Shown here one piece after another: positions 1 to 24,254 of a stretch of DNA of 24,254 nucleotides. The stretch lies in UHGV virus genome UHGV-1570564; one strand, given 5' to 3'. This stretch comes from a virus. Numbering within the stretch: position 1 is the stretch's first letter; the number at the start of each line of letters is the position of its first letter. A program made the translations under genes and the position numbers. The notes beneath the pieces are model-generated. The model did no database searches and was not told the DNA's origin. It saw only the letters and a program-made list of their open reading frames with translations.

Positions 1-536
1 GTATCAACACGGTTCAGCAATACCCGATACTTTTTCCAGGCTTCCAGCAACGAGGTTTCTTCCTCCGTTGCAATTTCCAGATCTGCAGCATCCTGAAGCG
101 GCGCAATATGCTCACTGGCTACCTGCATCAGGTTGTTTTTTGTTTCTTCCGCCTCCCGGATCCGGAACAGTTTTTCTGCTTCCGTATCCTTCACCCAGGC
201 TGTGCCGTTCCACTTCTGAAACTCCCCTTCCGGCGATAACCAGGTAACATTTTCCGGTAACGGACCGAGTTCAGAAATAAATAACTCGTCCCCTGACGCT
301 ACGTCATAAACCGTTTTACCCCGATGGTCTTCAACGAGATGCCACGATGCCTCATCACTGTTGAAAACAGCCACAAAGCCAGCAGGAATATCTGGTGGTG
401 CAATATCGGTACTGTTTGCTGGCAGACCTGTATGAGGCGGAATATATGCGTAACCTTCACCAATAAATTCATTAGTTCCGGCCAGCAGATTATAAATTTT
501 TATGGTCCGTGCTTGTTCACTCATTCTGAATGCCAT
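1..536 (-). CDS. tfa: Tail fibre assembly protein (Tfa / gpG-like), 5' portion only; 3' end lies beyond the window start
   Basis: Minus-strand ORF with ATG at 536..534, open to position 1. Translation begins [54 protein letters not shown], which I recognise as the conserved N-terminus of enterobacterial prophage Tfa proteins. Start overlaps the tail fibre stop as TAATG. Confidence 0.8.
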
Positions 537-3433
537 TATGCAAGCCTCACAATATAATTAAATGCGATGTTTTTAACGGTGTTTTCCGCGTTACCAGCAG
601 CGTTAACGGTGATGGTGTGTCCATGTGAACCAATCGCAACGGAGTGCGTATGCGCACCAATACCTACAGTATGTGCATGTGCGCCAGAACTTGCTGCAGT
701 ACCAGACAGCGAGTGGGTATGAGCACCTGCTGACTGTGTCTGAATACGTTGATAATACGATCTATAGGAAGAAGTCTCCGGGCTTACTTGATACTGTGAA
801 TTCTGGACATAAGTGAACCCACCGCCATCATAAAATGCTAACGCAGAACCGCCGCCTCCTGGCCAACGAATACCATTACCATGAGTATGAACACCGGCAG
901 ACCCCGTAGAGCCACTCAGCCTGTGCGTATGCGCCCCGGTGTTATTCGTGGATTTAGTACCGTAATCAAACGACGATGTGGTTTTCGTACCCAAATCCGT
1001 ACTGGATGCGCTGGCACTGTGGGTGTGCGATTTAATGCCATCCTGTTCCTGAGACAATACGGCCCGACCACTGGCGGGTTTGCCCTTGATTGTCCAGCCG
1101 CGCATATCTGGAATAACACCAGAAGGATAGGCAATAGCCAGTTTCGGATATGCTGCCTTATCAAACGTCTGCCCCTGCATGATTGCATAACCTGCAGGTG
1201 GCGTATCTGATGGCCACGGCAGCGGAACACCTGGCGGAAACGCTTCAATATTTGCCGAGCCGTCAAATTTTACGCCGTTAATTGTCCTTGCCGTTTTCAG
1301 CTTTGTTGCTGTAGCAGCATTGCCGGATAGTTCGCCTGAAAGACCACCGCTGAATGTCTGTTTCGCCATCCATGTCTGAGCTTCGTCGATAATTGGCACA
1401 CGTCTTGTCGTAATCGTGCGGCTTCCCGGATTTCCTGAAATGCGAACCATAAAAAAGCGGTAATTCGCTTTACTTACAGTGCTGCGCCATACATGCATTG
1501 AGCGCCCCGTACCGGAATCATCACTCGGACCAACTGCGATGTTTATCAGGTTGCCATCAATGACGCCCCAGTCCATACCGTCGGGAATATTGGTCATATT
1601 ATCCAGCCGAACGGTTATCAGACTGCCCGGCACAAAATCGTAGGTCTGCCAGTCCAGGCTGGTGAGTTTTGCTACTGCGCCACCGATACCCAGATTCAGG
1701 GGAAGTGAATAAGATGTGTAAACTTCCCGCCATTCGCTCCATGAGCTGCCGGTAAAAACGCGCTCAAACGTGCGGCCTTTAAGGGTTGTACCTGTTCCGG
1801 CAGTTGTATAACGCTGCCATACATTAACACCATCAAACCGCCTCAACACTTCCAGAATGCCGAGTACAGTCACGCCGTTTCCGTCCAGTACTGGACCGTT
1901 GGTCGCTTTACCTGTAACGCTGTAAATACCTGGTGAGGTTACATCATTCAAATCACCTTCGTAATAACGACTCTCTGACTGATGACCGACTCTTAACCAC
2001 GGTTCCCACTGCGGATTTGATGCATCCCAGCTTGCCGCAAGACAGCGGACATACATATTTCCACGGCGAGTGGTATAACGTTGCGTTCTTCCATAATTTC
2101 CGCCTTCGAGGATCTCAAGCATCCCCTGAGCAAAGCCGCCTTCCTCTGGATAATTGCGTTCATATGAAGCTATAGCTGAGCTACTGTTACGCCATAAACC
2201 AAGATGCTCGGCGGCTCCAAGCGTATTCAGGTCTATAGTCGTACTCAAAGGGCGGGTAGCAGATTGAGTGTGACGCCATACGCCCCACGGACCATCAGTG
2301 CCATTCCACTTATTGGCGAGTTTACGCATGTATACATTGCCGTCTCTCGTGGTAAAGCGTTGCGTACCTGCAAAATGGCCGGCAGCAAAAACCTCAAGCA
2401 CACCGACAGCATTATCTTCCGGGAAATTTTTCTCCAGTGTTGCGTTGGTGGATGTTGCTTTAGACCAGATACCTGAATAAGCCTTAACAGGACCAAACGT
2501 ATTCAGATCAGCATCAAGCGGCATTTCGCCATTGTTTTTCATAAACGTCAGGCTGGTAACGCCAACATTGTCCAGAAAAGCTGATTTATCCTGGATATCT
2601 GCACCGTTCTGATTTTTCGCCAGACGTGAATTTGCGTTGTCATTTGCTGCCTTGACCGCTTTTGGCGTTGCCGCCTGCGTTTCAGACGTACTGTTAGTGG
2701 CACTACTGAGCTGAACTATCCCTTTTTGTGCCGTGGTGGCATTCTGGGCGGTATATTTTCCGTCAGCCAGGTCATATGCAGCCTTAACAGCCTTAGGCGT
2801 CGCTGCGAGCTTTTCAGACGTGCTATTGGTGGCATTACTGAGTTGAACAATGCCTTTTGATGTTAAAGTTGCATCAGGATGATTACGTGATTGCTCATGT
2901 TTTACAATAGCTTGCTTAAGCCGCTTTGCTGAAACAGCCAGGGAATCATCTGTACCTGCATCAATTTCTTGTTCATTAGCAAATCTTGCTACTCCAACAA
3001 CAGTTTCGGTTGCGGGAGGGTTAATAAACTCAACATCACCAAATGTAATGTTTTTAGTATCAAGATTTTTAATTGCTATATCACTTGATATTAAAGCAAT
3101 TGTAGAAGATACTTTATTTATTATTACTTGTTCTTGCGAGTATACAGCAAACAATGTTCCTTTATTTGTATACAAACCTATTGTATGGACAACATACTCA
3201 TCTTTACTATCATCCTTCGCAGTTACATGAATGGTATCAGGAGAAACGACTTTGCCTCCTATTGTGGTAAGTCGCTTTATTTCATCTGTTATTTTTGTTT
3301 GTGTGGTTGATGTGGCATAATATCTACTACCTAAACCAACAGAAACGATCTCAACTTTATTTGTTCCAGTCTTGTTGGCATTAACCAGCGCCTTACGCCC
3401 GGCGTCAGTCATCGTAAATAATAATTTACTCAC
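536..3433 (-). CDS. Tail fibre protein (965 aa), P2 gpH-like N-terminal anchor fused to a lambdoid Stf-like shaft and tip
   Basis: N-terminus [19 protein letters not shown] and the [10 protein letters not shown] motif followed by duplicated KGIVQLS(N/S)[17 protein letters not shown] repeats resemble P2 gpH. C-terminus has seven HxH motifs and ends [18 protein letters not shown], typical of enterobacterial side tail fibres. Sits after baseplate genes and before tfa. Confidence 0.85.
539..1021 (-). repeat. Coding repeats for the His-x-His rich C-terminal tip of the tail fibre
   Basis: Seven HTH/HAH/HGH motifs in the last ~160 aa; the corresponding DNA shows recurring gtgcgtatgcgc / gtgcatgtgcgc / gtgggtgtgcga type segments. 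Confidence 0.5.
2645..2857 (-). repeat. Two direct copies of a ~27-aa tail fibre repeat ([24 protein letters not shown]), about 130 nt apart
   Basis: Repeat copies at aa 193-219 and 237-263 of the tail fibre; the DNA copies are visibly similar (ttcagacgt(g/a)ct(a/g)tt(g/a)gtggca(t/c)tactgag(t/c)tgaac). Confidence 0.7.
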
Positions 3434-3463
3434 GCTTAATTCCTTGGATTAACAAATCGCAAA

Positions 3464-4045
3464 TTAGCACTCACCAATTAATCGTACATAAGACACAGGC
3501 TGGAAAGCACCGACAATACCAACACCACCTGAAACATTGGTTGCTTGCGAAAATGTAAATAGTGTTCTTGCCGACTTTGCACTCTTGATACTTCTTAACG
3601 TATCCTCCAACATCTCTTTCGAAGGAACAGCACCATCAAAAGAGTTAATCGAAGCAACAATTGAGGCTGTATATGGTTCGCCAGGTGGTGATGTTTCAAA
3701 CCATTCTGTTATGTTTACCTCTCCACCCAAGCTATTTACTACATCTTCAACCGCTGCCCTTGTACCCTTTATTCGCTTTGTTCGTATTATTGATTTAAAA
3801 ACAGAACGCTTTAACAATACAGGCCAACTATCCCTCCATGTATCAGCATTCCATTGCCAAGCTAAATGATCGAGAACAACTGAGTCCAGGTTATCAACAA
3901 CGCTATATATTTCTGTCTTATATATTAAATTGTTAATTGCTTGTAGTTCATCATCAATAGCTTTCGACATAGCTATCACGTTGGGATCGCTAGCTAAGTT
4001 AGGAGGTAAAACATCCAACAAGCTAACATTAAAGATATCAGCCAT
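3464..4045 (-). CDS. Tail/baseplate protein, P2 gpI-like (193 aa)
   Basis: Size and position between the J-like gene and the tail fibre gene, start overlapping the J-like gene end; assignment is mainly by synteny. Confidence 0.55.
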   Translation of the reverse strand: MADIFNVSLLDVLPPNLASDPNVIAMSKAIDDELQAINNLIYKTEIYSVVDNLDSVVLDHLAWQWNADTWRDSWPVLLKRSVFKSIIRTKRIKGTRAAVEDVVNSLGGEVNITEWFETSPPGEPYTASIVASINSFDGAVPSKEMLEDTLRSIKSAKSARTLFTFSQATNVSGGVGIVGAFQPVSYVRLIGEC

Positions 4046-5162
4046 CCTCTAACCCCGCATACTGGCAATTTATATTTCTCTCTCTGGCGACCTGTGTCTC
4101 TCCAATCACAGTAAAAACAGGACTTGATATTTCTAATCTTTTAGCCCCAGCATTTTTTAAACGTTGAATAATTTCATCTGGATTTATATCTCTTCCCATA
4201 ACCGAACGTTGCCATTGTTTATACTCATCAATAGCTTTCTCAACCTCACTTTGAATTAAAGTTGTTCTGTTTTTGTCCGATGAGTTAATCCAGTATTTAA
4301 TTATTATATCGTATTCAATGCTCTCTGGTTTCTTAACAAGAACTTTATCTGTGAATGGTCGAATATTAGTTGCAGAGAGAACGCTATTTATCTGCTCTAA
4401 TAGTTCATTAGAAGGTATATCTCCGTTCTCTAACAAAGAACGGATTTCTACAATTCCGGGCGATGGTGTATATACATTCACATCTTTTATATTCTGATTG
4501 GCTGTTCTTGTCCAATATTTATAAGAATCCTCCGGCCCTGCTGTAGACAGTTTTTCCGGCGACAGTTTTATTCTTTCAGCATAATTATCATCTGACTCCG
4601 TATCAGCACCAGAATTAGATGTTGTTACATTCCTTACGCTGGAAACATACGGCAACGGAGTCACCAACTCATTTATTTGCCCTGGTAAAAAGCCATTCCC
4701 AGATAAACCAGGTATAACAGCATATCCTGAGACTGTACCAACTGTTTTCCCAGCAGGTATTTCCAACAAAATATCTGTTTGGAAAATAACACCATTTCCA
4801 GTTGAAACTTGAGTGCCAGCAGGTATTGTATATATCCCCGATAATTTTGTTGACAGATTAAACTCAAATGTAGTCAAGGCAGATTGAGCTTCCAGCCTAG
4901 GCGTATCCGTCAGATAGCCTATATGGTCGAGATATTCACCTTCACCATATGTAAGAAGGTTTTGTTTTGCAGAAAAATCGATAGCTTTTCTTTGCTGTAT
5001 AATAATCTCACACAATGATAAGATGAATAATCTACGTGGATCAGCAGGTGCTAATGTTTCACCTGTTATACTCTCAAAAGCCCTGATTGAACGAGTTGTT
5101 ATATCAGTCGGGTTAGAATCTGCGAAAGTAATATCTGGCAAACCACCACGCGGCAACGTCAT
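4038..5162 (-). CDS. Baseplate J-like protein (374 aa)
   Basis: Size and position immediately downstream of the W-like gene with ATGA-type overlap; conserved W-J-I-fibre order of P2/Mu-type baseplates. Confidence 0.7.
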   Translation of the reverse strand: MTLPRGGLPDITFADSNPTDITTRSIRAFESITGETLAPADPRRLFILSLCEIIIQQRKAIDFSAKQNLLTYGEGEYLDHIGYLTDTPRLEAQSALTTFEFNLSTKLSGIYTIPAGTQVSTGNGVIFQTDILLEIPAGKTVGTVSGYAVIPGLSGNGFLPGQINELVTPLPYVSSVRNVTTSNSGADTESDDNYAERIKLSPEKLSTAGPEDSYKYWTRTANQNIKDVNVYTPSPGIVEIRSLLENGDIPSNELLEQINSVLSATNIRPFTDKVLVKKPESIEYDIIIKYWINSSDKNRTTLIQSEVEKAIDEYKQWQRSVMGRDINPDEIIQRLKNAGAKRLEISSPVFTVIGETQVARERNINCQYAGLEDG

Positions 5163-5479
5163 TCTCTAACTCCTATCACAAGTTTTGGCCTAATAAAACC
5201 ATCAGAAACGTCCGTTCTTTCAAAAGTAACAGAATGGATAATCGCTCTAGGCTCAAACTCACTAATTTTTTGAATTATTTCTCGTGTTGCTGTAGCAATA
5301 AAAATTGGACTAGGGCTATCAACAAGACTTGAATTAATTCCTAATTTTCTGGCATATGGTACAGTGCCAATTTGAGTATTAATAATAGTAGAGACATTTT
5401 GCAAAACTTCTTCTACAACTGTTTTGGGCGACCAATCAATCGAGTAAGAAGGTGATGATATGGTAAACGTATTATTCAT
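5159..5479 (-). CDS. Baseplate assembly protein W (gp25-like, 106 aa)
   Basis: Small protein with a TQIGTVPYARKLG segment and an EPRAIIHSV motif consistent with the gp25/GPW family; located between spike and J genes. Confidence 0.65.
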   Translation of the reverse strand: MNNTFTISSPSYSIDWSPKTVVEEVLQNVSTIINTQIGTVPYARKLGINSSLVDSPSPIFIATATREIIQKISEFEPRAIIHSVTFERTDVSDGFIRPKLVIGVRE

Positions 5480-5943
5480 AATAATTTACCTAACGCACTT
5501 CTAGTTTTTGACTCTATATTGCCAGCAATATCAACTAATGCTTCTTTCAGAGAGGTCTGTCCGACTTCCTGTAATTTAATGCCGACGATAATCACTCGTG
5601 GATTCCCAGTTGGACCGAAATAAGTCCATGATTCCTCTATATCTGTAATTATAAAATTACCAAAATACTGAATACCAATTACAACAGGATTTACTTCCTG
5701 AATTGATTGCATTGTCCTAAGTAATGAAAGCGCAGCCAATGGAATAATGCCAAGTGTTGTATCCAACCGCATATTAAAACTAACTTCATCCAGATCTGGA
5801 CCTATATCCTCCAGAACAGGTTTAAGCCCAATAACATCATGGCGCGCTACACGACGCTTTGACGTCCTTTTAAAATTGTTGAACGTATTCACCACTATTG
5901 ATGAGGCAACAAAAGGCATTGTACCAAGCATACCCACAATCAT
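5476..5943 (-). CDS. Hypothetical protein (155 aa) inserted between spike V and W in the baseplate operon
   Basis: ORF translationally coupled on both sides (overlaps at 5940-5943 and 5476-5479); hydrophobic N-terminus MIVGMLGTMPFVASSIVV; no motif I can assign. Confidence 0.5.
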   Translation of the reverse strand: MIVGMLGTMPFVASSIVVNTFNNFKRTSKRRVARHDVIGLKPVLEDIGPDLDEVSFNMRLDTTLGIIPLAALSLLRTMQSIQEVNPVVIGIQYFGNFIITDIEESWTYFGPTGNPRVIIVGIKLQEVGQTSLKEALVDIAGNIESKTRSALGKLL

Positions 5944-6560
5944 GCCTGAGCCTCCGTTGTCGGAGCGTATTCCCCCTGAGCTGTGTGATGGTGGCCTTTA
6001 GATTTAATCCCATCAACATCTATATCACCACCAACAACCTTAACATTCCCAGAAATTGTAGCTGCAACACCTCCAGCAGAAGATCCTTTCATTCCACCTT
6101 TGAAGGTTAGTAATCCTTCAACTGTAGCATTTCCGGTAATGATGGTTTCTGGAGCATCAATAGTTACGGTTCCTGTAGCCTTAATGGTTACATCTCCGAC
6201 AGCATCAACAAGGAGTAAATTAGATTCTCTGTCTATCTCAATACGAGTTCCGTTATTAAATCTAATGACGCGTTTATTAACAGTATTAGATGGCGGCTTC
6301 TGTGTTTCATCATAAAAACTACCAAGAATAAAACCTTGTTGCGGCCCCGCGGGATGAAAGATACACAAAACTTGCTCACCAATATCTGGCATCCAGTAAT
6401 CAGCATTCTTATCTGTATTTTTCACAATAACTGATAACTTTGCCGAAGTGACGTTATCCTGATCATCGAAAGTAACTCTTGCTGTAACATCACCATCATC
6501 AATATCAGAAACAACGCCAACTCTTATAGTCTGACGTAATAATGTTTCTAAATCATTCAT
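5940..6560 (-). CDS. Baseplate spike / assembly protein V (gp5-like, 206 aa)
   Basis: N-terminal OB-fold-like region followed by a Gly/Val/Thr-rich beta-repeat stretch (VGDVTIKATGTVTIDAPETIITGNATVEG...ISGNVKVVGGDIDVDG) typical of phage central spikes; position after the gpD-like hub. Confidence 0.7.
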   Translation of the reverse strand: MNDLETLLRQTIRVGVVSDIDDGDVTARVTFDDQDNVTSAKLSVIVKNTDKNADYWMPDIGEQVLCIFHPAGPQQGFILGSFYDETQKPPSNTVNKRVIRFNNGTRIEIDRESNLLLVDAVGDVTIKATGTVTIDAPETIITGNATVEGLLTFKGGMKGSSAGGVAATISGNVKVVGGDIDVDGIKSKGHHHTAQGEYAPTTEAQA

Positions 6561-6562
6561 AA

Positions 6563-7564
6563 TTAATACCCATTAATTACTCTTCGGACATCAATCGAGG
6601 TGGTATAACCACTAGTCCCAATTGAATGCACAGCTTTCGATATAAGATATTTTCCAGAAAATGAACCGAATCCCTCCAGATTTATAGTTACACCAGCTAC
6701 CAATCTGGTGTCTCCAACCAATACTAAAGATCCGGTATTTTGATATCTATTTTTAAGCCGCAAAGCAGCCTTTGCCTTACGTTTTGCTTCATCTAAATTA
6801 GCTACCAGTTTTCTTATCTTAAGATTCGACCCTTCTTCTACGGATGGATCTACCCAAGTATACGAAAGCGACTTTCTTTTTTTAGGTACGCGATATTTGC
6901 ACGTGCAACTTTTATACAAATCTGTAGATTGTGTGCTAAAGCTATATCTGATTATCTCATCAATACCTAACGTAAGCGTAGCGATAGGATCTTTTTGCTC
7001 AAACATCTCTTGAGCAAATATTATTAATTGGCTATCAGTGACCTTTAACGACAACCCTTCATCCTGGCAAAGTCGATGGAGAAATTTTAAATCGCTTTCC
7101 TCCATTTGATCTTCACGCGCATAATATGGATTACTATCACCATCAATAAGAAACAACAGTTCAAGGTTAGCTAATTTAGCTATAGAAGTTGCTATATCTT
7201 TAAGAGTTGTTTTTTCCCATGCATTACTTTTTAAATCACGTCTAATGCCTGATGAAACAGGAACAGAAACAGCAGTTACCTCAACCACAGAAGGTGGTCC
7301 AGAGCAAGTTATGCCATCTACCTGGAATTTCCCGCACTCAAGGACGATTTGATTTATAGGCTTAAAGCTCAAATCAATAAAATCACCCTTTTTAGGTGTC
7401 CAGTCTCCAGACCATTTCCCATCATCATTTTTTAATATAATAGAAATATCATCGACCTGACCATCTTCATTATCTGTATAAGACATTGACAAAACATCAG
7501 GTGACATATGAGCGGTAATATTTACATTCTGATATATAACATCAAAAAGCGTTTTACGTAACAC
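6563..7564 (-). CDS. gpD-like tail protein / baseplate hub (333 aa)
   Basis: Size and position after tape measure and the LysM gpX-like gene, as in P2 (T-X/U-D) and Mu (gp44). Confidence 0.65.
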   Translation of the reverse strand: MLRKTLFDVIYQNVNITAHMSPDVLSMSYTDNEDGQVDDISIILKNDDGKWSGDWTPKKGDFIDLSFKPINQIVLECGKFQVDGITCSGPPSVVEVTAVSVPVSSGIRRDLKSNAWEKTTLKDIATSIAKLANLELLFLIDGDSNPYYAREDQMEESDLKFLHRLCQDEGLSLKVTDSQLIIFAQEMFEQKDPIATLTLGIDEIIRYSFSTQSTDLYKSCTCKYRVPKKRKSLSYTWVDPSVEEGSNLKIRKLVANLDEAKRKAKAALRLKNRYQNTGSLVLVGDTRLVAGVTINLEGFGSFSGKYLISKAVHSIGTSGYTTSIDVRRVINGY

Positions 7565-20711: not shown

Positions 20712-21263
20712 TTATTCTTCCTGCTTAATAAATCGGGATTCCTGGAGCGCCTGAAGCGCAAAATTAATCTCGTCTTCAATAATGCGCTCGATCTCCCTGG
20801 CTGTTTTGCCTTCACAACGGGGAGCTGCTCTTGGAGCAATACTAAATAAGCGGCTACGCAATTCATTAGCTGCCAGAAATGCATCATCCCTGACCGCATC
20901 TTTAGCGATGAGAGAGCCTTCCTTTTCTTCAAATTCAAGGCGTTTCAGCTTTGCCTGATAAATTTTTTCTGCGGTCTTAGCCTTGTTGAATTGCACCGCA
21001 ACACCGGAAGTACCACCAGCTAATCCGGCATCATCAGCGGGTAACTCTGGTTGTTCCGAAGATATCCCATGCCCTCTTTTTCCATTTTCAGCAGATACCT
21101 CACGACCAACCTGTCGGCTCGCTTCATAAGCCGCACTGGCTTTATCAAAATCCAGCTTGCCGCTTTTCAGCACTGGAATGCGACCGGAACGACAGAGCTT
21201 CGTAACCATTGCCGGAGAAATACCTTTCCGGCGGGCAAACTCTGACTTACTGACGATGGCCAT
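20712..21263 (-). CDS. Terminase small subunit, Nu1-like with N-terminal helix-turn-helix
   Basis: MAIVSKSEFARRKGISPAMVTKLCRSGRIPVLKSGK parallels the lambda Nu1 N-terminus. Preferred start is ATG 21263..21261, overlapping the ParB-like stop as TAATG; the ORF track start at 21272 is a TTG. Confidence 0.7.
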   Translation of the reverse strand: MAIVSKSEFARRKGISPAMVTKLCRSGRIPVLKSGKLDFDKASAAYEASRQVGREVSAENGKRGHGISSEQPELPADDAGLAGGTSGVAVQFNKAKTAEKIYQAKLKRLEFEEKEGSLIAKDAVRDDAFLAANELRSRLFSIAPRAAPRCEGKTAREIERIIEDEINFALQALQESRFIKQEE

Positions 21264-21853
21264 TACTTGCAACCATTAGCAAGATACTGAACAAATCCCT
21301 CATGCGTTTCATGCGCGTCGTGGTACTGACGATAAACATCCAGCAACAATGCAATTTCCATATCCGTCGCGGGAATACGTTCTTTATCAATAGCCAGGTA
21401 CTTAATTTGAACAACAGGGGAAGAATTATCGTCTTCTTCCTGCGGCTGTTCATCGCTTAACATTTCGTCAAGCTCTGCATCATTAAACCCAAGCAGATCA
21501 ATATCAAAATCATCATCCATTAACTCTTTGACTTCTTCGGCCAGAAGCTGCATATCCCAGCCAGCATTTAAGGCCAGCTTGTTATCTGCAATCCTGTAAG
21601 CCTTCTTCTGTTTTTCAGAAAGGTTACTCAACCGAATCGCCGGAACTTTATCCATTTCCAGAATTTCGGCTGCTGCAAGCCGCCCATGCCCCGCAATCAG
21701 TTCATTCTTTTCATCGATCAGCACAGGATTAGTGAAACCGAACTCACGGATACTGTTCACCAACTGTTCAACTTGCTCATCTGAATGAGTCCGTGAATTT
21801 TTGGCATATCTGAGCAACTTACCGACTGGTAAATATTCGATTTTTAGAGCCAT
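21263..21853 (-). CDS. ParB-like nuclease-domain (ParB/Srx fold) protein, standalone, 196 aa
   Basis: NSRTHSDEQVEQLVNSIREFGFTNPVLIDEKNELIAGHGRLAAAEILEMDKVPA matches the ParB N-terminal domain signature (..GHGRL.AA..); acidic C-terminal half; stop overlaps the small terminase start. Confidence 0.75.
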   Translation of the reverse strand: MALKIEYLPVGKLLRYAKNSRTHSDEQVEQLVNSIREFGFTNPVLIDEKNELIAGHGRLAAAEILEMDKVPAIRLSNLSEKQKKAYRIADNKLALNAGWDMQLLAEEVKELMDDDFDIDLLGFNDAELDEMLSDEQPQEEDDNSSPVVQIKYLAIDKERIPATDMEIALLLDVYRQYHDAHETHEGFVQYLANGCK

Positions 21854-22409
21854 TTTTTAACCGCCATAACACAACAGGTTAAAGAAAACTGTTTAACTTA
21901 TTGATACTAAAAGAGAAAAATGACGATCTTTTTACTCATAAAAAATCACACAAACCAGCATAATTATCTGATTTTATTAAGTTTTTATAAGTAAAAAGGA
22001 TCTTGCGATGGTGTTTTGGTTAAAAGATTGGATGTATTTGCATGATTTATAACGATTTTTATCAGAACAACATCACATTGGTTAAAGATCTGCGCGTATC
22101 TTGATGATCTAAAAGAAAATTTTCCACTTTCTTCTTACCAGCACAAATACAGAAAAAATCACGTTTTCCCGATATTTTTCAATGAGATGAGTAAATTTCT
22201 TTTACCGCAACTTTTAACCTAACTTTTTTCACGTTTAGCTAGCCGAATATCGGGGTTCGAATGACCCGCATCCAACGCTTTTGGCCAGAAGGACCCAATT
22301 CTGCCGGACGATGAAACGATGCTCGTGCTCCCCCACAGACAGCCAGCGAGCGACGCTACAGAACACAGTGAATACACCCTGCATAACAACACCATCAACC
22401 ACACGATGA
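21854..22409 (-). promoter_or_regulatory. AT-rich non-coding region upstream of the ParB-terminase-head-tail operon; candidate late promoter and/or packaging (cos) region
   Basis: About 550 bp with no convincing ORF. Repeated motifs: GGTTAAAGA-like at 21877-21885, 22018-22027, 22080-22088; AAAAAATCAC at 21940-21949 and 22153-22162; four GATC sites between 21925 and 22109. No specific -35/-10 pair could be assigned with confidence. Confidence 0.35.
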
Positions 22410-23129
22410 TTAACGAGAGAACGTCTTAGAAAGGATGTCATCAATAGCCTTTGTGACTTCATCAGCAAACGCATCCTCACCAGCACGCAGCGCCACGCCA
22501 TGCCAATCAAGACGCTGCGAATAGTTAGGTTGCTGGATGAACGTAAGGATCAACGTAGGACGCCGCCCAACGCGCTGCCAGACGCCTGGTTGAAGCGGGT
22601 TACTTGTACCAGGTCGAACAACAAAAAACTCCGTAGGCTTGCCCTGACGGCGATTTTGATGCGCATCTCGCTGAACTCTTAGGCCAGATAAGACCTGCTG
22701 TAATTGCCCCCGCGAAATATTCCCGTATTTGTCCAGCTTTGCGCCGGGACCAGGAGCAAGCTGCCAGCCGTTAGGCAAATATCCACCAGCCCTTAGCGCC
22801 CCTTCTGAGCGTTTGTACTGTCGTTGGCCGCCTTCGATTTGCGGAGTCAACGTTACAGGGGCTGGCGTTCCACCCCATTCACGAGCATACACAATGGCTG
22901 TAGGATCACTCTTCTTTGCGGCCAAAACGTAAGTAGAGTTCTGAATCCACGGCGTGGGCCTGTCAAATACCCGATTAATTTCATTCTTAATCGCAGCCTG
23001 AGAAGCCTTTGCCGTTCTGGTTGCCGCAAGCGCCATTGCGAACGGCAATTCGCGTTCTTCAAGGCGCTGGAGTTGTCGTTGAATATCCTGAGAAGAAAAA
23101 TCCATCTTTATCTCAATTCTGTCAGCCAC
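22410..23129 (-). CDS. Hypothetical protein (239 aa), Arg/Gln/Gly-rich, no cysteine; downstream partner of the methyltransferase-fold gene
   Basis: ORF with GTG start at 23129..23127 preceded by AGGAGG (23140..23135) at 5-nt spacing, 16 nt after the upstream gene's stop; no recognisable catalytic or structural motif. Confidence 0.5.
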   Translation of the reverse strand: MADRIEIKMDFSSQDIQRQLQRLEERELPFAMALAATRTAKASQAAIKNEINRVFDRPTPWIQNSTYVLAAKKSDPTAIVYAREWGGTPAPVTLTPQIEGGQRQYKRSEGALRAGGYLPNGWQLAPGPGAKLDKYGNISRGQLQQVLSGLRVQRDAHQNRRQGKPTEFFVVRPGTSNPLQPGVWQRVGRRPTLILTFIQQPNYSQRLDWHGVALRAGEDAFADEVTKAIDDILSKTFSR

Positions 23130-23145
23130 CAGCGCCTCCTACACA

Positions 23146-24219
23146 CTACTTAATCAACGGCCGGAAAGCCGCCAGCACATCATCAGATCGTCCGATTGTT
23201 GAACCACCAGGCAACGGCAACTCAAACTCAAAACGAACAGCTTTCTCCAGACTCGCCCAACTAAGGGAATCATCGTTAATGACGTGCAAATACCAGCTCT
23301 TACAGTTGAATATTGACCGCTTAATCCTGAAACCATGTACACGACACAACTGCTTCACTTCCTCATCAGAGTGAAACTTCTGGTAAAACCAGTGCCCCTT
23401 CCGGTACAACGCGGTAAAACCGTCATGATCAATAAAATAAAGCCGGCTTTTGGAACTCGCCGCTTGTGTTTGCTTCAGGACTGTTTCCAGTTCTCCACGG
23501 CTACGGCCAGAAAAGAATATTGACCCACCAGCTTTACACAGGCCTTTCAGAACCGTCAGAACGGACCATTCAGCCTCGACACTATCGACCGAGTTCAAAA
23601 CGCTATCGCAAATCACGTAGTCGTAACGCCCTCGCGTTTTTAAGTCGTCCACCAGCGTATCAATCATCCGGTTTGTTGCGGCCCTATCCAGAGTGTTTCC
23701 AGCGCCCTTACGGCGGAAAAGCTCGAGATCATGCAGGTTATATCCCTTTGCCCTGAGCATTCGCGCGTAGTCTCCCTGCCCCGAACCAAAATCAATTCCT
23801 CTTGGCGTCTTGGCAATGATCGGGAGGATCAACGACTCATACAGATTTGATTTCAGGCTGCCACCATTACGCAACCGCATAAGCTGCGCATACGTCTGGA
23901 TGTATGTTGTTTTCTCCAGATGAGAATACTCAAATACACCATAAGTTTTATTCAGATAACTTTGGTATTTTTCCTTCTCAACATCAGGGATCACAAACAC
24001 CGTTAGCGGTGTGCGCGTCATTTTCGCTGCTAATGCATACTGAGCACAGTGAATAACCTCACCAGACTGAGTAGCAACACAACCACCCCACGGACCATAC
24101 TTGATAACCAGTTCCGCTATGTTCTTTCGAACATATGCCATTTTCGCGCGCATATTGCCTGAGATCTGGCTTGCCGATACCTGAACAAAACCATGCTTAT
24201 GAAGCAATACATTCAACAT
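23146..24219 (-). CDS. Class I SAM-dependent methyltransferase-fold protein with ~135-aa N-terminal extension (357 aa); substrate unknown
   Basis: Motif I-like GIDFGSGQGDYARML, acidic residue in ..GYNLHDLELF.., and YDYVICDSVL / GGSIFFSG segments typical of Rossmann-fold methyltransferases. No (D/N/S)PP(Y/F/W) or PCQ/ENV motifs of canonical DNA methyltransferases. Confidence 0.6.
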   Translation of the reverse strand: MLNVLLHKHGFVQVSASQISGNMRAKMAYVRKNIAELVIKYGPWGGCVATQSGEVIHCAQYALAAKMTRTPLTVFVIPDVEKEKYQSYLNKTYGVFEYSHLEKTTYIQTYAQLMRLRNGGSLKSNLYESLILPIIAKTPRGIDFGSGQGDYARMLRAKGYNLHDLELFRRKGAGNTLDRAATNRMIDTLVDDLKTRGRYDYVICDSVLNSVDSVEAEWSVLTVLKGLCKAGGSIFFSGRSRGELETVLKQTQAASSKSRLYFIDHDGFTALYRKGHWFYQKFHSDEEVKQLCRVHGFRIKRSIFNCKSWYLHVINDDSLSWASLEKAVRFEFELPLPGGSTIGRSDDVLAAFRPLIK

Positions 24220-24254
24220 CAGCGTGGCTGATCACCTTTCGGGCTTTTCAAGCC

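Follow-up and report, generated by a model that had tools for sequence, protein, structure and literature searches.

Mosaic tail fibres have belonged to textbook knowledge since the early 1990s. Sandmeier in 1994 and Haggard-Ljungquist et al. in 1992 are said to have put forward a motif-shuffling model, and Tetart, Desplats and Krisch reportedly described motif-mediated adhesin swapping in T-even phages in 1998. Fibre N-termini anchor to the baseplate and the distal parts are functionally swappable (PMC6116203). Lambda recombines with prophage stf-tfa through relaxed homologous recombination (PMC3945230).

Here we describe the tail fibre encoded on a stretch of 24,254 nt (hereafter the window), which is the structural module of a low-GC E. 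coli phage-plasmid of ~47–49 kb. The carrier has a lambda-type head module, and the fibre sits in a contractile-tail baseplate context. We find that the fibre gene is a mosaic, horizontally exchanged gene: its segments differ in their relatives and in composition, and its joints lie at shared motifs. Judged by sequence relationships, at least three sources have contributed, namely the phage-plasmid backbone (aa 1–220), a P2-like fibre (aa 235–701) and a lambdoid fibre (aa 702–965 together with tfa), the latter two probably taken from E. coli prophages. The mosaicism is well documented in the present case but not novel, and it changes no concept. A literature search found no description of the fibre locus of this phage-plasmid family.

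The fibre gene, its anchor and its composition break

The gene lies at 536–3433 on the minus strand, exactly as originally predicted, and forms an uninterrupted reading frame of 965 codons plus stop encoding a 965-aa tail fibre. It starts with GTG, and an AAGGA Shine-Dalgarno sequence is found 7 nt upstream. Genes for gpJ-like and gpI-like baseplate proteins, identified by Pfam, are located immediately upstream: the gpI-like protein (3464–4045, minus strand; Tail_P2_I, E = 1.8e-26) is the presumed docking partner of the fibre anchor, and the neighbouring gene carries Baseplate_J (E = 6e-54). At the other end, the ATG of the tail-fibre assembly chaperone gene tfa (1–536, minus strand) overlaps the TAA stop of the fibre gene; tfa is cut by the window edge, leaving its 5′ 178 codons, and its product matches PHROG 105 'tail fiber assembly' (E = 5.6e-91). 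The fibre protein itself contains two copies of Phage_fiber_2 (PF03406, E = 4.5e-41) and a Pfam match to Collar (PF07484, E = 3.5e-10). An NCBIfam search of the fibre and Tfa gave no match to either.

The resident N-terminal baseplate-anchor module spans aa 1–173 (2915–3433, minus strand) and comprises a globular domain (~aa 8–132) followed by a gp12/gp34-like fibre repeat, in line with a PDB profile search that matched the T4 gp12/gp34 repeats. Within its own phage-plasmid family the anchor is 99% identical at the amino-acid level, compared with just 40–47% for Burkholderia and Stenotrophomonas P2-like fibres, where alignments stop at aa 170–176. PHROG tail-fibre N-termini match positions 1–176 (E = 1e-47 to 1e-61), and anchor homologues diverge after SAKRLK (aa 173), just before the HEQSR motif. 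Most proteins found by homology to the anchor were partial or ~300 aa long, and in them the domain is paired with different C-termini. More distant homologues of the domain carry PF12571 (N-terminal tail-collar fibre domain); this family scores below threshold in the window protein (16.7 bits against a cutoff of 23, E = 0.0075). The AF2 model of the anchor has a pLDDT of 85–96 over residues 1–125. Searching with it, Foldseek gave a chain of the Haloferax HFTV1 tail as its sole significant match and no tie to a solved P2 or pyocin baseplate. A scan of genome contigs with the anchor domain yielded no confirmed locus. We infer that the anchor fixes the fibre to gpI/gpJ, which would give it a baseplate-docking role.

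Sliding GC is 0.30–0.40 over 2900–3433 and 0.47–0.55 over 536–2800, so the distal remainder is indeed of higher GC (~45–53% had been predicted from the letters). For the first ~180 codons the predicted value of ~30% proved too low, the anchor having an overall GC of 0.36, while low GC as such was correctly called. Their likeness in composition to the baseplate genes was also borne out: GC3 is 0.23 in the anchor, 0.29 in gpI and 0.27 in gpJ, with resident genes ranging from 0.20 to 0.38. Using GC3, which resolves a change point to ~20 codons, we place the break at codon 197 (window 2842); its 2-LLR support interval covers codons 189–207 (2812–2866, minus strand). GC3 rises here from 0.21 upstream to 0.44 downstream. 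The log-likelihood ratio for the change point was 19.6 compared to a maximum of 9.3 among 500 permutations; the step thus exceeds all of them and contradicts a uniform composition. By segment, GC3 is 0.28 in the HEQSR motif plus the first fibre repeat, 0.51 in the second repeat, 0.45 in the P2-like part, 0.42 in the tip and 0.44 in tfa.

Such a step might in principle arise with no horizontal transfer, from amino-acid content or codon selection within one native gene, and fibre shafts are indeed rich in Gly, Ala, Ser and Thr, which leads to higher GC at codon positions 1 and 2. However, the step is largest at third positions, and since the shift is found there it is not an amino-acid-composition effect. 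In addition, the distal parts are 93–98% DNA-identical to P2-like or lambdoid prophages whereas the anchor has no such relatives, and relatives sharing the backbone at 98–99% identity carry unrelated distal fibres. A purely compositional explanation is ruled out by GC3 together with these segment-specific DNA homologies, and we assign it a negligible probability.

The break falls at the start of the first Phage_fiber_2 repeat, 10–20 codons distal to the HEQSR motif with which it had been expected to coincide; the motif itself is written in low-GC3 codons. Two relatives with entirely different distal fibres (L002 and L005) have their change point likewise, at codon 198. Because relatives with other distal fibres break at the same codon, the composition break is a family-wide module boundary and not the scar of the latest graft in the window element. 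The support interval does not exactly match either the deep domain boundary (aa 173–178) or the graft joint of the lineage (aa 220–235).

The graft joint and the P2-like middle section

The HEQSR motif (aa 179–188; 2870–2899, minus strand) is the first element that the fibre has in common with P2/186-type H fibres. Two Phage_fiber_2 repeats follow. Repeat 1 (~aa 192–221; 2771–2858, minus strand) belongs to the family backbone and is ~89–93% identical to that of L005, and repeat 2 (~aa 236–265; 2639–2726, minus strand) is a P2-type allele, beyond which homology to relatives with invertible fibres ceases. Together they form a direct repeat (D1) of 88 nt, 80% identical and 132 nt apart.

Between the two repeats, at 2730–2774 (minus strand), homology switches from the phage-plasmid backbone to P2-like prophage H, marking the graft joint of the window lineage. 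Identity to L002 and L005 falls from ~93% to ~81% at 2773 and is absent beyond 2639. The 93% identity to P2-like H starts at 2730, a position taken from BLAST HSPs, the alignment of the single P2 repeat to repeat 1 being less informative. Again, the P2-like block of pDETEC34 starts at a position equivalent to the window joint. Near-identity of family plasmids to the window ends in clusters, at 2639–2650 for most plasmids, at 2784–2796 by megablast, at 1292 and at 138. For pMB9880_3, alignment puts the end of near-identity at ~2836–2860 where megablast had put it at 2784–2796. We conclude that aa 1–220 are resident backbone.

The original prediction was that a lambdoid side-tail-fibre distal part had been joined to the resident anchor in a single graft exactly at HEQSR (2880–2900). 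When the N- and C-terminal parts are compared separately they do find different best-hit lineages, PHROG families likewise differ from segment to segment, and the idea of a graft onto a resident anchor stands; the location does not. Several observations would fit a joint at the motif: P2 H, 186 K and Salmonella P2-like fibres share DNA homology with the window from 2899–2908 on, with none upstream of 2908; anchor homologues diverge after aa 173; the terminus of the protein is lambdoid; and the composition break lies within 30–60 nt. Homology to lambda and P1-type fibres, for its part, starts at 2858–2866. Yet only 1 of 17 third positions in the HEQSR region (aa 174–190) is G or C, i.e. its codons are of the resident style, and ~93–98% identity to relatives with other distal fibres continues through the motif to 2774–2860. 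Moreover, the break is common to the whole family, the stretch after the joint is P2-like rather than lambdoid, and the distal part is itself composite. A single graft at HEQSR is thus contradicted by breakpoint mapping and we regard it as improbable.

The P2-like H middle section (aa 266–701; 1331–2638, minus strand) is 93% identical in nucleotide sequence to the P2-like phage NC_070906 and to a chromosomal P2-like prophage; counted from aa 235, the match to P2-like prophage fibre H is likewise 93%. At the protein level P2-like H can be aligned with the window fibre from HEQSR on, and the two are near-identical over aa 266–719. The section contains three tandem knob-like repeats of ~90 aa (1700–2518), 36–41% identical to one another, and then a further domain. 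A PDB sequence search with the knob-like repeats did not pick up the R-type pyocin fibre. The lambdoid character that had been ascribed to the whole distal part therefore holds for aa 702–965 and tfa and fails for aa 235–701.

An invertible segment resembling that of Mu G, accompanied by a Hin-like recombinase and gix-like inverted repeats, is found in most relatives. After the same anchor, their layout is a fibre constant part, Sv and tfa, an inverted Sv' and tfa', the gix-like repeats and the recombinase gene. This raises the possibility that the joint arose from site-specific recombination by a fibre DNA invertase of the Gin/Cin/Hin/Min type, the composition break being the Sc/Sv boundary of a host-range switch, and stf gene exchange driven by invertase has been proposed (PMC3945230, citing Sandmeier 1994). 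However, the crossover sites of L002 and L005 are at codons ~440–457, ~240 codons distal to the break, and a search of the whole window for the gix-like site at up to 3 mismatches found no match. The mapped joints instead lie inside shared homology (repeats, linker and His box), and the closest complete relatives (L004 and L007) are without the invertase. We rejected the Sc/Sv boundary on the lack of a gix-like site in the window and the far distal position of the relatives' sites, and consider an invertase origin of the joint very improbable.

The same two closest relatives also lack the inverted Sv'/tfa' set, and 32 nt of the invertase gene are left. In pDETEC34, a block of 3.54 kb that is 95.5% identical to a chromosomal P2-like prophage stands where other relatives have the invertible segment, and backbone sequence picks up again within the final ~32 nt of the invertase gene. 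The P2-like prophage has the gene order gpI-H-tfa-acetyltransferase. From these alignments, both the invertase and the invertible segment of the closest complete relatives appear to have given way to a P2-type cassette of 3.5 kb. Because the window ends inside tfa, only relatives show where the replaced block ends on the left. Relatives with a backbone 98–99% identical to the window carry unrelated distal fibres, and at least three fibre architectures are found on this one backbone.

The distal tip and the stepwise exchange

The conserved GNAATATKL linker (aa 704–720; 1274–1329, minus strand) marks the switch between P2-type H and a lambdoid Stf tip: identity to a P2-like sequence (L003) stops at 1278 and identity to a lambdoid one (L008) starts at 1329. 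The tip (aa 702–965; 539–1329, minus strand) is of the lambda Stf/T4 gp37 type, with a collar domain and a needle bearing seven HxH motifs that are putatively iron-binding, and it matches PDB 2XGF, the T4 gp37 tip, over aa 716–965 (E = 2.4e-79). It is 98.2–98.8% identical in nucleotide sequence to the stf of a lambdoid prophage ordered gpJ-lom-stf-tfa. Similarly, tfa is 98% identical to lambdoid tfa and just 84% to the tfa of the closest plasmids. Folded with Tfa, this tip would bind a receptor on the host surface and set host range.

Counts of informative sites per 50 nt place a crossover at the second His box (GAHTH; 923–950, minus strand). To the right of this interval the sequence follows the pDETEC34/P2-prophage type, and to the left the lambdoid type. 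None of the searched records has the fibre combination across this joint, which is unique to the window; it represents a new recombinant or else a join made during assembly. The window terminates in a repeat at each end (tfa at the left, an IS200/IS605 end at the right), suggesting a short-read contig, and a near-identical block of ~350 nt (950–1300) is common to the plasmid type and the chromosomal lambdoid prophage. The joint at 925–950 could therefore be an assembly join via this block, in which case assembly fused a plasmid contig with a lambdoid prophage of the chromosome, the tip and tfa of lambdoid type are an artefact and the true fibre is of the pDETEC34 type. Against this, the reading frame is kept across the join, which sits at a known recombination motif, like exchange is common in natural fibres (e.g. 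P2-like phages with this tip), and the window matches the plasmid type throughout the shared block as a true recombinant would. We hold an artefact to be unlikely.

Drawing on the composition break, the mapped homology switches, the domain identities and the differing architectures of relatives, all directly observed, we consider it very probable that the window encodes a modular, trimeric, myovirus-type phage-plasmid fibre in which distal parts were exchanged onto a resident anchor in at least two steps. The first ~190 residues would be the element's own baseplate-docking module and everything distal an exchangeable host-recognition part, whose proximal limit, common to the whole family, would be the composition break. 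Distal parts would be swapped by homologous recombination at short conserved linkers of enterobacterial phage fibres, here HEQSR with the two Phage_fiber_2 repeats, the GNAATATKL linker and the His boxes of the needle tip. In the first step, a P2-like prophage cassette (distal H and tfa, with the acetyltransferase in complete relatives) may have replaced the invertible segment and invertase, with its joint between the two repeats at 2730–2774. In the second, the needle tip and tfa may have been exchanged for lambdoid stf-tfa, with a crossover at the His box at ~925–950. Homologous recombination as the mechanism and the order of the transfers are what the joints suggest, and their direction is suggested by distribution, composition and the invertase remnant.

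More tentatively, and with the balance of probability against it, HEQSR and the double Phage_fiber_2 repeat may be a maintained 'universal adaptor' with which the low-GC phage-plasmid family could capture, time and again, entire host-range cassettes from P2-like, P1-like and lambdoid phages of whatever host it currently has. The fibre may also stack two complete receptor-binding modules, a gp37-type needle and the P2-type knobs together with the domain distal to them. If so, the two stacked modules could confer dual receptor specificity once the ancestral invertase switch had been lost.

Comparison with known fibre systems

The locus offers a coordinate-level natural example of how a temperate element retargets: the docking module is kept, and receptor-binding modules change places at a small number of conserved linkers, in this case from one kind of element to another (phage-plasmids, P2-like prophages and lambdoid prophages). 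For engineering fibres or tailocins, the joints at aa ~190–265, at aa ~704–720 and at the His boxes offer practical places of fusion. That a fixed cassette took over from an invertible host-range switch adds a small, concrete piece to the natural history of phage-plasmids.

Among known systems, P2 gpH with its chaperone gpG (Peduoviridae), taken together with P2-like prophage variants that have Stf-type tips, has the same gene order, gpJ-gpI-fibre-tfa, and the same succession of an N-terminal attachment domain, a HEQSR(R/N)HPDA motif and Phage_fiber_2 repeats. The likeness to P2-like prophages extends to the whole distal cassette of the closest relatives and to aa 235–701 of the window fibre, at the identities given above. 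In contrast, the N-terminal domain of the window fibre is only remotely related to that of P2 gpH, with PF12571 below threshold and no nucleotide homology upstream of 2908; P2-like donors have one fibre repeat where the window has two; and the fibre is carried by a low-GC phage-plasmid that has a lambda-type head module, not by a P2-like phage.

The C-terminal 250 aa, with collar and seven-HxH needle and a Tfa-type chaperone encoded directly downstream, resemble lambda Stf-Tfa and the T4 gp37 tip. This likeness is confined to the last 27% of the protein, window 1–1329 alone matching lambdoid stf-tfa. Unlike lambda Stf, the fibre has a P2-type anchor at its N-terminus and serves a contractile-tail baseplate, not a siphovirus tail tip.

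The invertible systems of Mu G (S/U, S'/U', Gin), P1 C (Cin) and p15B Min resemble what most members of the phage-plasmid family carry after the same anchor, and the fibre repeats of the window family are shared with Mu S (PDB 5YVQ) and P1 S. The window differs from these switches in having no crossover site, and its host range is, as far as its sequence indicates, fixed rather than phase-variable.

Motif-mediated adhesin swapping in the T-even phages is a parallel in kind. There too, homology switches at short conserved motifs, including the His box of a gp37-type tip, and at repeats common to unrelated phages. We see no difference in principle between the two, and the window fibre is a further natural case of motif-mediated swapping, here in a phage-plasmid.

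The tail fibre gene and its composition break

The predicted tail fibre gene (536..3433, minus strand) is a real, uninterrupted ORF of 965 codons, whose GTG start is preceded at a distance of 7 nt by the ribosome-binding site AAGGA. The annotated start varies among relatives, PGAP picking ATG (window 3412) in some records and GTG (window 3433) in others; a Shine-Dalgarno sequence precedes only the GTG. Directly upstream are gpI-like (Tail_P2_I, E 1.8e-26) and gpJ-like (Baseplate_J, E 6e-54) baseplate genes, and downstream is the tail-fibre assembly chaperone gene (tfa), whose ATG overlaps the fibre TAA stop and which runs past the left window edge. Pfam matches to the fibre are two Phage_fiber_2 domains (E 4.5e-41) and a Collar domain. 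Late structural genes make up what remains of the window, coding for a lambda-type head (terminase gpA, portal, ClpP-like protease, capsid E) together with a P2-type contractile tail; an ORF in this late module, at 21263-21853 and adjoining the terminase genes, carries a ParB N-terminal domain. Positions 138-24200 share 99.1-99.6% identity with a plasmid family of E. coli whose members are ~47-49 kb long, non-mobilizable and equipped with repA, indicating that the window is part of a phage-plasmid.

Exact calculation bears out the predicted composition break, with GC of 0.30-0.40 over 2900-3433 versus 0.47-0.55 over 536-2800. GC at third codon positions (GC3) has a change point at codon 197 (window 2842; 2-log-likelihood-ratio support interval codons 189-207, window 2812-2866), being 0.21 upstream and 0.44 downstream, and the log-likelihood ratio of 19.6 compares with a maximum of 9.3 in 500 permutations. 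Because the step sits in third positions, an amino-acid effect is excluded as its source. GC3 of the N-terminal anchor module (2915-3433) is 0.23, which fits among the resident genes (0.20-0.38).

The original prediction set the break at the 10-residue HEQSR motif (aa 179-188, window 2870-2899). This motif is indeed close, and DNA homology to P2 H, 186 K and Salmonella P2-like fibres starts exactly there (2899-2908); however, it lies on the low-GC3 side, with G/C at 1 of 17 third positions over aa 174-190, and therefore the break is 10-20 codons distal to it, where fibre repeat 1 begins. Homology to lambda Stf and P1 S starts with this repeat, at 2858-2866. Anchor homologues can be aligned through SAKRLK (aa 173) and diverge completely after it. 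Nor is the break the scar of the latest graft in this element: an E. fergusonii plasmid (L005) and Yersinia phage vB_YpM_44 (L002), both with unrelated distal fibres, have the same GC3 change point (codon 198) with a similar log-likelihood ratio. The break is therefore family-wide and bounds the exchangeable region on its proximal side.

Segment relationships and joints

Searched apart, the N- and C-terminal parts have different best-match lineages, the anchor matching its own family and the distal part P2-like and lambdoid fibres; the four fibre segments fall into different PHROG families. For aa 1-200 the best matches are two induced E. coli phages (99% aa), followed by 49-kb Yersinia phages of the same family (93-94%), beyond which there are only P2-like fibres of Burkholderia, Stenotrophomonas and Halomonas (40-47%), in alignments that stop at aa 170-176. 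In the AF2 model of the anchor, residues 1-125 form a globular domain predicted with confidence (pLDDT 85-96), and a fibre-like region comes after it; the model matches only one known structure significantly, a chain from the Haloferax HFTV1 tail. The C-terminal stretch of the anchor matches T4 gp12/gp34 fibre repeats.

The distal part had been called lambdoid. This holds for aa 702-965 and tfa (window 1329-1, minus strand), which are 98.2-98.8% identical in nucleotides to the stf-tfa region of chromosomal lambdoid prophages in the context gpJ-lom-stf-tfa, but aa 235-719 (window 2730-1278, minus strand) are P2-like, sharing 93% nucleotide identity with P2-like phages and prophages. The tip carries seven HxH motifs and matches the T4 gp37 tip of known structure (2XGF; E 2.4e-79).

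The distal part thus came from elsewhere, as proposed, but the joint of this lineage is not at the HEQSR motif. Identity to L005 and L002 is ~93% to aa 220, ~81% over aa 221-260 and nil past 2639, and the 93% P2-like identity begins at 2730, which places the joint at 2730-2774, within the linker that separates two direct repeats of 88 nt (2771-2858 and 2639-2726; 80% identical, 132 nt apart). Near-identity of the family plasmids to the window stops at a few discrete positions: 2639-2650 for most of the family, 2784-2796 by megablast for some plasmids (~2836-2860 in direct alignment to pMB9880_3), 1292 for one plasmid, and 138 for the window's own lineage.

Homology switches again at the conserved 17-residue GNAATATKL linker (aa 704-720, window 1274-1329), where identity to a P2-like locus stops at 1278 and identity to the lambdoid prophage starts at 1329, and once more at the second His box (~925-950). 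To the right of this last site the window differs from plasmid pDETEC34 at 0-1 positions per 50 nt; to the left it differs at 0-1 from the lambdoid prophage and at ~20 from pDETEC34. This exact combination was absent from all searched records, and at 950-1300 the window shares a nearly identical stretch of ~350 nt with lambdoid prophages; the 925-950 joint could therefore be an assembly join and not a new recombinant. The window ends are of the pattern typical of short-read contigs: the left edge lies inside tfa, a multi-copy gene, and the last 58 nt (24197-24254) are 98% identical to one end of an IS200/IS605-family element, and resemblance to the family plasmids ceases at 24200. With both ends in repeats, the window may well be a whole short-read contig. 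The original finding is unaffected by this doubt, being corroborated by many complete plasmids, and the original interpretation is broadly right, if imprecise on joint and donors.

At the right end of the window GC climbs to 0.48-0.51 (22000-24219; ORFs 22410-23129 and 23146-24219, minus strand). The 357-aa ORF here, which matches a methyltransferase domain (E 6.8e-08), stands out with a GC3 of 0.51 versus ~0.3 in its neighbours, and may be another acquired gene.

Alternative architectures of the fibre locus

After the same anchor, the typical family member has a Mu G-like invertible switch comprising fibre, tfa, a tfa' and Sv' in inverted orientation, inverted repeats resembling gix (AACCTCGGTTTACAGGAA type) and, beside repA, a Hin-like recombinase. 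Crossover sites in these relatives are at codons ~440-457, ~240 codons distal to the break; a search of the window for their gix-like site, allowing up to 3 mismatches, found none. The closest complete relative, pDETEC34, has in place of the entire invertible segment a 3.54-kb block containing distal H, tfa and a serine acetyltransferase gene, after which the backbone picks up again within the final ~32 nt of the invertase gene. This block shares 95.5% identity with a chromosomal P2-like prophage, which holds the same cassette in the native order gpI-H-tfa-acetyltransferase. A third architecture is that of pMB9880_3, which combines two fibre proteins with a small ORF and tfa and lacks an invertase; its anchor allele is that of the window (98.4%) up to ~2836-2860. 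At least three architectures (L005 2349-7356; L002 5001-10096; pMB9880_3 2903-7138; L007, a close complete plasmid relative, 3977-7949) on an otherwise 98-99% identical backbone argue that the fibre locus is a recombination hot spot.

The family has two anchor alleles (window 2915-3433), 98-99% identical among the window, pDETEC34 and pMB9880_3 lineages and ~93% in the invertible-fibre lineage, whereas the backbone outside the anchor (3464-24200) is ~98.5% identical to that lineage, suggesting that the 'constant' anchor may also be exchanged, or may be evolving faster. The serine acetyltransferase ('transferase') gene is outside the window and convergent with tfa (L001 283-846, L004 19-564, L006 3272-3817, L007 3977-4522). 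It accompanies the P2-type fibre cassette in chromosomal P2-like prophages and phage-plasmids alike, and may represent a moron that modifies the surface and is linked to the host-range module. One family plasmid (NZ_CP040921.1, 40369-43605) has an IS2 insertion inside the region matching the fibre and gpI genes.

Segment-specific homologies, composition, joints within shared motifs, alternative architectures and the invertase remnant are established by the data. Fibre N-termini attach to the baseplate and distal parts are functionally swappable (PMC6116203), and lambda recombines with prophage stf-tfa regions (PMC3945230). Here, homologous (relaxed) recombination at conserved linkers would have brought cassettes into the phage-plasmid, the probable donors being host-adapted P2-like and lambdoid prophages. 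The first ~190 residues would dock the fibre trimer to gpI/gpJ, and the gp37/Stf-type needle, folded with Tfa, would bind the receptor and set host range.

Comparison with known fibre systems

It is classical knowledge that P2, P1, Mu, lambda and T-even phages exchange fibre segments at conserved motifs; such horizontal exchange was reportedly described by Haggard-Ljungquist (1992), Sandmeier (1992 and 1994) and Tetart (1998). The present fibre is a well-resolved further example of this known kind of exchange. Its position, motifs and chaperone are those of a P2 gpH-type fibre, and while its tip is of the lambda Stf / T4 gp37 type, the fibre as a whole is not a lambda Stf. Lacking the crossover sites, the window fibre is probably not part of an invertible switch such as its relatives carry. 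In function it would resemble a fibre of the P2 gpH type that bears a lambda Stf / T4 gp37-type tip.
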